Of a stretch of DNA of 11,069 nucleotides, positions 9,315-10,364 are shown one piece after another (the stretch's first letter is position 1; each line of letters opens with the position of its first letter). This stretch comes from a virus (taxonomy: Duplodnaviria; Heunggongvirae; Uroviricota; Caudoviricetes): IMG/VR virus record IMGVR_UViG_2585427777_000015. The stretch is one strand, 5' to 3'. The translations under genes were made by a program, and so were the position numbers. The notes beneath the pieces are model-generated. The model did not search any database. It saw nothing but the letters and a program-made list of their open reading frames with translations, and was not told where the DNA came from.

Positions 9315-10364
9315 TCAAACGATTAAATCCTGAACTTCCCTGACTGTCTGCTCAAAACGTCCGGTCTCCAGTTCAACGCCAATCGCACGACGCCCGAGCG
9401 CCAGTGCCGCTTTTACCGTTGAACCTGAGCCCATAAAAAAATCTGCAACCAGGTCACCCGGACGACTGCTTGCGCTGATTATCTGCTGCAGCATTTCTGC
9501 CGGTTTTTCGCACGGATGTTTCCCGGGATAGAACTGCACCGGTTTATGTGTCCACACATCCGTGTACGGCACCTGCGCCGTCACACCAAAATACCGCCGC
9601 AGATGCTTATATTCACTCTGCAGCTCCACATACTGCCGGTTCAGTGACGTATACGTATCCACCAGCTGGTGGTGGGGCTTTTCCAGTTCACCGCGCTGAT
9701 GTTTCTCTTCTGCCACCCGGGCAAACAGCGACTGTAATTTCAGATAATCGCTTTCGTTCGGTAGCTGCCACTGACTGGCACTGAACCAGTGCGACACCAT
9801 GTTTTTCTTTCCTGTGGCATCTGCAATCTGTTTTGCCGTTATCCCCAGGGCCGCGCGCGCATCACGAAAGTAAGAAATCAGCGGGGCCATCACATGCTGT
9901 TTCAGTGCACTGCCCTTCGCCGCATACCCGGCATCTTTCGGACGATACGGCCCCTGATAATGTTCCGCGAACAGAATGCGCTCTGTGGCGGGGAAATACG
10001 CCCGCAGGCTTTCCTTGTTGCATCCGTTCCAGCGTCCGGACGGCTTCGCCCAGATAATATGGTTCAGCACACTGAAGCGTTCACGCATCATGATTTCGAT
10101 ATCAGATGCCAGGCGATGACCACAGAACAGGTAAAGACTTCCGGCAGGTTTCAGCACCCGCCAGAACTGCGCCAGACACTGGTCCAGCCACTTCAGGTAA
10201 TCATCGTCGCCCTTCCACTGGTTATCCCAGCCCTCAGGCTTCACTTTAAAGTACGGCGGGTCCGTGACTATCAGGTCAACAGAATTTTCGGGTAACGACC
10301 GGATAAATTCCAGGCAGTCGGCGTTGATTAACTCACAACTGGATATTTTTACAGTATTAAGCAT
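9315..10364 (-). CDS. Orphan DNA methyltransferase, beta-class amino-MTase (N6-adenine or N4-cytosine; DPPY motif before FxGxG)
   Basis: 349-aa ORF. Motif IV DLIVTDPPY near the N-terminus (residues about 30-38) and an AdoMet-binding motif I-like FFMGSGSTVKAALALGRRAIGVELE near the C-terminus; this order defines the beta group. No adjacent restriction endonuclease ORF. Confidence 0.85.
   Translation of the reverse strand: MLNTVKISSCELINADCLEFIRSLPENSVDLIVTDPPYFKVKPEGWDNQWKGDDDYLKWLDQCLAQFWRVLKPAGSLYLFCGHRLASDIEIMMRERFSVLNHIIWAKPSGRWNGCNKESLRAYFPATERILFAEHYQGPYRPKDAGYAAKGSALKQHVMAPLISYFRDARAALGITAKQIADATGKKNMVSHWFSASQWQLPNESDYLKLQSLFARVAEEKHQRGELEKPHHQLVDTYTSLNRQYVELQSEYKHLRRYFGVTAQVPYTDVWTHKPVQFYPGKHPCEKPAEMLQQIISASSRPGDLVADFFMGSGSTVKAALALGRRAIGVELETGRFEQTVREVQDLIV

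Follow-up and report, generated by a model that had tools for sequence, protein, structure and literature searches.

A prophage-borne beta-class methyltransferase gene, very probably an intact member of the known M.EcoGI/M.EcoGII family of non-specific N6-adenine methyltransferases

M.EcoGII is a 349-aa beta-class enzyme that E. coli O104:H4 C227-11 carries on a cryptic prophage (Murray et al., PMC5778455). It methylates adenine in any context, modifying as much as 99% of dA in vitro, and ssDNA, RNA and RNA/DNA hybrids also serve as substrates in vitro (PMC5778455). The enzyme blocks many restriction enzymes, is silent in the lysogen and has deleterious effects under constitutive expression (PMC5778455). 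It elutes as a dimer, and an AlphaFold2 multimer model shows a four-helix bundle with a helix-turn-helix at residues ~160-237, together with a long charged linker (PMC11551740). Enzymes of the M.EcoGII type have been published and commercialised, and are widely used for chromatin footprinting.

The same strain encodes M.EcoGI, a prophage-borne orphan Type II beta-class enzyme which is reported to be non-specific and silent in the lysogen (PMC5778455, PMC4659465). M.EcoGI and M.EcoGII share 333 of 349 residues, i.e. they have 16 differences (PMC5778455). O111 STEC and ST131 EC958 have homologues with 92-99% identity; these are listed as "nonspecific" (PMC6602927, PMC4659465), and they were silent by SMRT sequencing or RT-PCR (PMC6602927, PMC4659465). 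Phage 1720a-02 has been named as the carrier of a very similar gene (PMC5778455). Other promiscuous adenine methyltransferases include M.EcoGIX/M.BceJIII, which is plasmid-borne and modifies SAY on ssDNA, and the alpha-class M.HaeV, which modifies BA. These follow the same logic of being encoded on a mobile element, silent when resident and broadly protective against restriction, but they differ from the enzyme described here in family and architecture: M.EcoGIX is single-strand specific and PolI-associated, and M.HaeV has the reversed (alpha) motif order.

The window analysed here is the whole 11,069-nucleotide stretch of the viral record IMGVR_UViG_2585427777_000015, and the features that surround its methyltransferase gene are collected in Table 1. 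The gene lies on the minus strand, a detail absent from the initial annotation of this DNA.

Table 1. Features at and around the methyltransferase gene, in coordinates of the window.
Feature	Position	Strand	Details and basis
Antiterminator Q, 3' end (last ~43 codons, runs off the window)	10939..11069	minus	Alignment to E. coli 042
PR'-like promoter candidate	10906..10933	minus	TTGATT, 16 nt, TGgTAAATT (extended -10); near-consensus
Terminator 1 (tR'-like)	10834..10856 (hairpin 10856-10841)	minus	CCCGCC-GCCT-GGCGGG + six T; hairpin scan
65-aa ORF, phrog_331, RefSeq hypothetical protein	10515..10712	minus	phrog_331 E = 6e-37
Terminator 2	10503..10528 (hairpin 10528-10511)	minus	GCCTTC-CGCAGT-GAAGGC + six T; hairpin scan
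Methyltransferase CDS, 349 aa	9315..10364	minus	ATG at 10364, stop included; ORF call
Motif IV DPPY, residues 35-38, catalytic	10251..10262	minus	Codons GAC CCG CCG TAC
Four-helix nucleic-acid-binding (TRD) domain with helix-turn-helix, residues 160-237	9654..9887	minus	Predicted; boundaries from the M.EcoGII model
Motif I FMGSG, residues 310-314, S-adenosylmethionine binding	9423..9437	minus	Codons TTT ATG GGC TCA GGT
Three tRNA genes: CAU (annotated tRNA-Ile, ileZ), Arg-UCG, Arg-UCU	9016..9265	minus	ARAGORN, Rfam, RefSeq and phiP27 annotation
Terminator-like hairpin with T-run, after the tRNA cluster	8976..9001 (hairpin 9001-8984)	minus	-11.9 kcal/mol, z -3.5

Motifs, class and closest relatives of the methyltransferase

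The 349-aa protein matched a single Pfam family, PF01555 (N6_N4_Mtase), over residues 29-340 (E = 2.3e-44), scoring 152.4 bits (cut-off 26.7). The matches among solved structures were led by 8URK/9C3U (E ~1e-25) and M.RsrI (1e-21), followed by CcrM, M.MboIIA and others, and both DPPY and FMGSG aligned column for column with 8URK/9C3U and M.RsrI. Motif IV precedes motif I, and the Pfam match and the alignment to solved enzymes agree with this order, confirming the claim of the initial annotation that the protein is a beta-class amino-methyltransferase. The same annotation had allowed for degenerate motifs; the alignment showed that both catalytic motifs are intact. Taken together, the ORF and its motif match are far above chance level.

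Two other class assignments were considered and rejected. An N4-cytosine methyltransferase was ruled out by the DPPY form of motif IV and the near-identity to a proven adenine enzyme, and a Dam-like (alpha-class, GATC) enzyme by the beta motif order and by membership of PF01555 rather than PF02086 (MethyltransfD12).

The window protein is 100% identical at the amino acid level to WP_000935516.1 (E. coli 042, NCTC9082). Against WP_000935536.1 of E. coli O104:H4 FDAARGOS_349 it matched at 348 of 349 residues and the gene at 1047 of 1050 nucleotides (3 nt differences), with the single changed residue, A74 in the window and V74 in O104:H4, lying in the catalytic domain. The O104:H4 locus also has the same flanks as the window, with Q (273 aa), the 65-aa ORF, the methyltransferase, tRNA Ile/Arg/Arg and the nanS-p esterase.

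Comparison with the published M.EcoGII sequence (PMC11551740 Table S1) gave 331 of 350 identical positions, or ~335 of 349 when obvious reading errors were discounted; this text was machine-read from a PDF and contains visible errors. The identity amounts to about 95%. Exact look-up of four hand-corrected versions of the M.EcoGII text in the sequence collection gave no match, reflecting either further reading errors in the text or an entry that is not indexed. M.EcoGII (GenBank EGT69837.1; sold by NEB) has the same length and motif order as the window protein, and the neighborhoods of DPPY and FMGSG are identical. The ~15 substitutions between the two fall nearly all within residues 148-278, i.e. 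the TRD and linker, which is where differences within the family cluster. They comprise A148E, S152R, S164A, S191P, D236S, T239S, S240E, Q244K, V246M, Q249L, H254N, A263V, F278Y and L321M. The dimer-interface residues 97-110 and 116-140 are the same as in M.EcoGII, with position 103 as a possible exception at which the machine-read text is doubtful.

The O104:H4 copy WP_000935536.1 differed from the M.EcoGII text at 15-16 genuine positions. As this matches the 16 differences published for the two paralogues, we infer by elimination that WP_000935536.1 is M.EcoGI, which has 349 residues like the window protein. The second O104:H4 paralogue was not recovered with a back-translated variable-region query or with the phiP27 variable region. 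These comparisons make it very probable that the window gene is an intact member of the M.EcoGI/M.EcoGII family of non-specific N6-adenine methyltransferases. Judged by these identities, the window enzyme is not an uncharacterised one.

Domain layout and predicted target specificity

The solved beta-class enzymes M.RsrI (1EG2), CcrM (6PBD), M.MboIIA (1G60) and 8URK/9C3U share the catalytic core with the window protein, with motif IV before motif I, and match it at residues ~8-114 and ~281-340 (E = 1e-25 to 1e-15). The central segment, residues 140-264, has no detectable similarity to them and no relative among solved structures; these enzymes are relatives in fold only. Those with a recognition site named in the literature are site-specific, unlike the M.EcoGII family. 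When the central segment was searched alone, a weak HTH_3 match was seen in Pfam at residues 167-195 (E = 0.0075, below the cut-off). AlphaFold2, run on the window protein as a single sequence, gave an unusable model (mean pLDDT 43, pTM 0.31), in which only residues ~165-235 reached a pLDDT of 50-75.

The initial annotation had presumed that target recognition resides in a middle region of ~250 residues. This needs narrowing: the predicted binding domain covers only ~160-237, and the region also holds the remainder of the catalytic Rossmann fold. On the published model of M.EcoGII (PMC11551740), which we adopt here, a Rossmann-fold core (residues ~1-134 and ~260-349) would bind SAM through FMGSG and hold a flipped-out adenine at DPPY, whilst the four-helix bundle with its helix-turn-helix (~160-237) and the charged linker would grip nucleic acid without reading the bases. 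The window enzyme would work as a homodimer.

The view that the target of the enzyme could not be inferred did not hold, as homology (348/349 identity to the O104:H4 paralogue and ~95% to M.EcoGII) predicts methylation of any adenine, with no sequence target. Given its near-identity to the context-independent M.EcoGII, no discrete motif is expected from the window enzyme, which is thus predicted to be a non-specific N6-adenine methyltransferase. The initial annotation had implicitly treated it as a site-specific orphan whose central domain reads a discrete recognition motif. Most beta-class enzymes are indeed site-specific, and among site-specific relatives whose predicted fold is similar overall, M.PflMI is the closest (PMC11551740); moreover, differences within the family cluster at residues 148-263, where specificity would reside. 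However, the only change that separates the window protein from the O104:H4 paralogue, A74V, is in the catalytic domain, both O104:H4 paralogues are reported to be non-specific, and M.EcoGII, with ~95% identity, is biochemically proven, making a site-specific enzyme very unlikely.

The activity of M.EcoGII on ssDNA, RNA and RNA/DNA hybrids in vitro, and the predicted co-transcription of the methyltransferase gene with three tRNA genes, could also suggest that RNA, or else single-stranded intermediates of replication or packaging, is the main substrate, with m6A being placed on late transcripts or on the adjacent phage tRNAs. We consider this equally hard to sustain, as the initial rate of M.EcoGII on RNA was ~100-fold below that on DNA (0.12 vs 11.12 in the same units; PMC11551740 Table S3), the arrangements in Flotzy and N15 are without the tRNAs, and RNA methylation in vivo in bacteria is without evidence. 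For a non-specific N6-adenine enzyme, the expected phenotype would be context-independent m6A on induction, with no new motif, and a methylome screen that seeks motifs would for this reason seem to fail.

Neighboring genes and late-operon context

The neighbors of the methyltransferase gene are Q, the 65-aa ORF, three tRNA genes (directly downstream), an sRNA and a truncated esterase. Neither the window nor six related loci contain an ORF or annotation that resembles a nuclease, consistent with the orphan status proposed in the initial annotation; flanked by Q, tRNAs, nanS-p and lambda-like tail genes, the gene is prophage-borne without a cognate nuclease. That it might be the modification half of a restriction-modification (R-M) system with an unrecognised nuclease draws on the general association of methyltransferases with R-M systems and nothing more. 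We regard this as extremely improbable: the flanks consist of Q, the winged-helix-like 65-aa ORF, tRNAs, sRNA and esterase, the six other loci are nuclease-free too, and a non-specific methyltransferase would be unable to pair classically with a site-specific nuclease. The initial annotation had also seen the gene as phage cargo with a probable anti-restriction role, and the same view is taken in PMC5778455. Weak Rfam matches within 8400-11069 (OmrA-B, P26, Ysr49, anti-hemB and Plastid-ycf2) were below the gathering score and were taken as chance.

The gene is common. A megablast search detected it in 1978 of the 5426 complete E. coli genomes, a single genome carrying up to 6 copies; 597 records matched at 99% identity or more, and the exact window protein occurs on at least 1000 public contigs. 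The finding is thus real but ordinary, with more than one in three complete E. coli genomes carrying the gene, and its useful outcome is the correct annotation of the methyltransferase. For EC958_1545 (M.EcoMV), no prophage was seen in the two 50-kb stretches of the EC958 chromosome that were examined.

Positions 8882-11069 of the window align at 99.6% to E. coli 042, in which Q is a 273-aa 'antitermination protein' matching Pfam PF03589 (Antiterm, E = 5e-51). The promoter candidate starts 6 nt past the Q stop codon and scored 8/12, against a scanner threshold of 9/12. Terminator 1 has a folding energy of -12.6 kcal/mol (z -2.7). Terminator 2, which overlaps the stop codon of the 65-aa ORF, is weak on energy alone (-9.6 kcal/mol, z -1.0), and the hairpin at 8976..9001 closes the methyltransferase-tRNA segment. 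Alignment of the window with 1720a-02 and phiP27 showed that both terminator stems are conserved in these phages. In 1720a-02, the terminator 1 hairpin is kept despite changed stem and loop bases, and the terminator 2 stem is invariant with a varying loop. The placement of the gene downstream of Q and of two terminators, as first described, was upheld by these hairpins and their conserved stems.

Although 1720a-02 and phiP27 have different Q genes, homology to them starts exactly at terminator 1 and continues through the 65-aa ORF, terminator 2 and the methyltransferase, showing that terminator, 65-aa ORF, terminator, methyltransferase and tRNAs form a mosaic module, placed behind the Q/PR' that a given phage carries. 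Intact relatives (NCTC9082, E. coli 042 and O104:H4) have the order RusA, Q, 65-aa ORF, methyltransferase, tRNA-Ile/Arg/Arg, nanS-p esterase, holin, lysozyme, Rz and terminase. The position is therefore that of a late-operon gene in having Q and the terminators upstream, and holin and lysozyme downstream in intact relatives; the promoter is near-consensus only.

Full-length homologues are found in the late operons of phiP27 (L24), 1720a-02, Stx2a/Stx2c phages, Flotzy and N15 (gp52), with amino acid identities to the window protein of 87%, 94%, 79% and 56%, the lowest being that of N15. All occupy the same slot, with the late antiterminator/promoter on one side and stx and/or the lysis cassette on the other. 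The homologue precedes stx2e in phiP27, stx2 in 1720a-02 and Stx2_14040, holin and endolysin in Flotzy, and holin and lysozyme in N15; the N15 annotation places a promoter and a terminator immediately before the homologue. Many of these homologues belong to a variant of 352 aa that ends in a different C-terminal tail (..LVSQNG). These phages differ in their Q modules, and the tRNAs and the 65-aa ORF are present in some only.

Use of the same slot across phages, together with the conserved terminators, supports late, antitermination-dependent expression. Q-dependent late expression of the methyltransferase, which the initial annotation had proposed, is thus well supported, but inferred, and late expression was also suspected by Murray et al. 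(PMC5778455). In the literature, we found no paper directly showing Q-dependent, induction-dependent or mitomycin-induced expression of the methyltransferase. On the proposed scheme, transcription would start at the PR'-like promoter just after Q and stop at the two terminators unless Q modifies RNA polymerase, so that synthesis of the methyltransferase would be confined to lytic growth, when the tRNAs, the lysis genes and, in phages that have it, stx are expressed too. Replicating phage DNA would then be blanketed with m6A, and in the next host the m6A-covered progeny may escape those Type I, II and III restriction systems that are sensitive to adenine methylation.

The two terminators bracket the 65-aa ORF, which immediately precedes the methyltransferase gene. 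This ORF gave a weak winged-helix/TrmB-like match (Pfam TrmB, E = 0.003-0.005, below the cut-off). Homologues lie upstream of the methyltransferase in phiP27, 1720a-02 and N15 (gp51); N15 gp51 matched the 65-aa ORF by BLASTP with E = 2e-4 and phrog_331 with E = 6e-28. In Flotzy, a homologue of the ORF is absent before the methyltransferase. The 65-aa protein might be a dedicated partner or controller of the methyltransferase, setting the timing of its expression, limiting its toxicity or steering it to phage DNA; we think this improbable, and if true, it would make the locus a two-gene module instead of a lone orphan enzyme. N15 is an unrelated linear-plasmid phage, and its gp51 precedes a methyltransferase that is 56% identical to that of the window.

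State of the prophage at this locus

Compared with E. coli 042, the window lacks 17,306 bp, comprising lysis, terminase, head and most tail genes (including the tail shaft). At the junction, 7601/7602, codon ~302 of the nanS-p esterase is fused to the tape-measure gene, of which the final 227 bp remain. The window was colinear with no complete E. coli genome, and the junction was present in 0 of 5426 complete E. coli genomes. Either the prophage in the window is defective, or the junction is an assembly artefact. In both cases, given the loss of lysis, head and most tail genes, the methyltransferase here is probably a silent, still intact relic.

Another reading would be that the enzyme is active if made, but that the defective prophage cannot express it usefully, leaving it with no current role for phage or host. 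The extent of the 17,306-bp loss (lysis, terminase, head and most tail genes) and the silence of the methyltransferase family in lysogens are consistent with this, and the element that hosts M.EcoGII was also called a cryptic prophage by Murray et al. (PMC5778455). However, intact prophages carry copies with 100% identity to the ORF, and the promoter, terminators and tRNAs are all preserved, such that the deletion may be very recent; the junction, being seen in none of the 5426 complete genomes, could itself be an assembly artefact. On balance we find the loss of any current role conceivable, but rather unlikely. This reading bears on whether the gene is of use today at this locus, not on the product that it encodes, and is compatible with the M.EcoGI/M.EcoGII explanation.

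A conserved small reading frame and regulatory-like elements before the methyltransferase

Directly upstream of the methyltransferase gene lies a 65-aa open reading frame (ORF) assigned to phrog_331, which also shows a weak TrmB/winged-helix match. An ORF of this family precedes the methyltransferase in lambda-like prophages and in N15, the product of the latter (gp51) sharing 28% identity and matching phrog_331 with E = 6e-28; no phrog_331 ORF was found upstream of the methyltransferase in phage Flotzy. The small protein may be a partner or regulator of the methyltransferase.

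Table. Coordinates of features in the window and of the small-ORF homologues in related phage loci.
Feature	Location	Strand	Remarks
65-aa ORF	10515-10712	-	phrog_331
65-aa ORF homologue, N15 gp51	L004 2006-2233
65-aa ORF homologue, phiP27	L006 2148-2345
65-aa ORF homologue, 1720a-02	L002 3120-3350
Hairpin GAGCCUAUCAGAGACAGGCUU	10365-10392	-	7-8-bp stem; end 8 nt upstream of methyltransferase ATG
tRNA with CAU anticodon	9190-9265	-	ARAGORN: tRNA Met; RefSeq and phiP27 record: tRNA-Ile (ileZ)
STnc100 sRNA family	8730-8939	-	Rfam, strong full-length match, 152 bits (gathering score 47)
Truncated nanS-p esterase fusion ORF	7509-8507	-	spans junction 7601-7602
Tape-measure remnant	7375-7600		adjoins junction 7601-7602

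The 10-mer TGTGGTAAAT, which forms the extended -10 of the candidate PR'-like promoter (10907-10916, minus strand), occurs a second time at 10492-10501 on the same strand, where it directly follows the T-run of terminator 2; 1720a-02 and O104:H4 retain this second copy. With about 0.1 occurrences expected per 500 nt, its recurrence could be due to chance or could mark a -10-like pause or promoter element. Closer to the gene, the hairpin GAGCCUAUCAGAGACAGGCUU covers the sole purine-rich, Shine-Dalgarno-like stretch before the methyltransferase, and might affect its translation initiation. The hairpin is kept in 1720a-02 and partly in phiP27, and its folding energy is unremarkable (z -0.6).

Apparent loss of sequence in Stx2a phages and at the 7601/7602 junction

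Several Stx2a phage records, phi191, PA12, PA50 and Stx2_7982 among them, hold only a 33-aa C-terminal remnant of the methyltransferase (residues 316-348). In this lineage the gene has apparently been deleted, with its 3' end left behind.

Alignment to the E. coli 042 prophage showed that the window itself lacks 17,306 bp, with the breakpoint at 7601-7602, and that the lysis, terminase, head and tail-shaft genes were lost with this segment. At the junction a nanS-p (SASA/DUF1737) esterase gene, broken off at about codon 302, runs with a 2-bp overlap into the tape-measure gene, of which the final 227 bp remain. This junction is missing from all 5426 complete E. coli genomes, and so is either an artefact of assembly or specific to the strain.

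The region downstream of the methyltransferase

The tRNA cluster is of the ileZ-argN-argO type known from Stx phages. Given the ileZ annotation of the tRNA with the CAU anticodon, that anticodon is implied to be lysidine-modified. Between this cluster and the truncated esterase lies the STnc100 match, in the slot that is occupied by the stx genes in Stx phages. An 88-bp stretch (8882-8969) aligned twice each to E. coli 042 and NCTC9082, where it forms a direct repeat flanking a 380-bp segment absent from the window, and we therefore read the difference as a small repeat-mediated indel downstream of the tRNAs.
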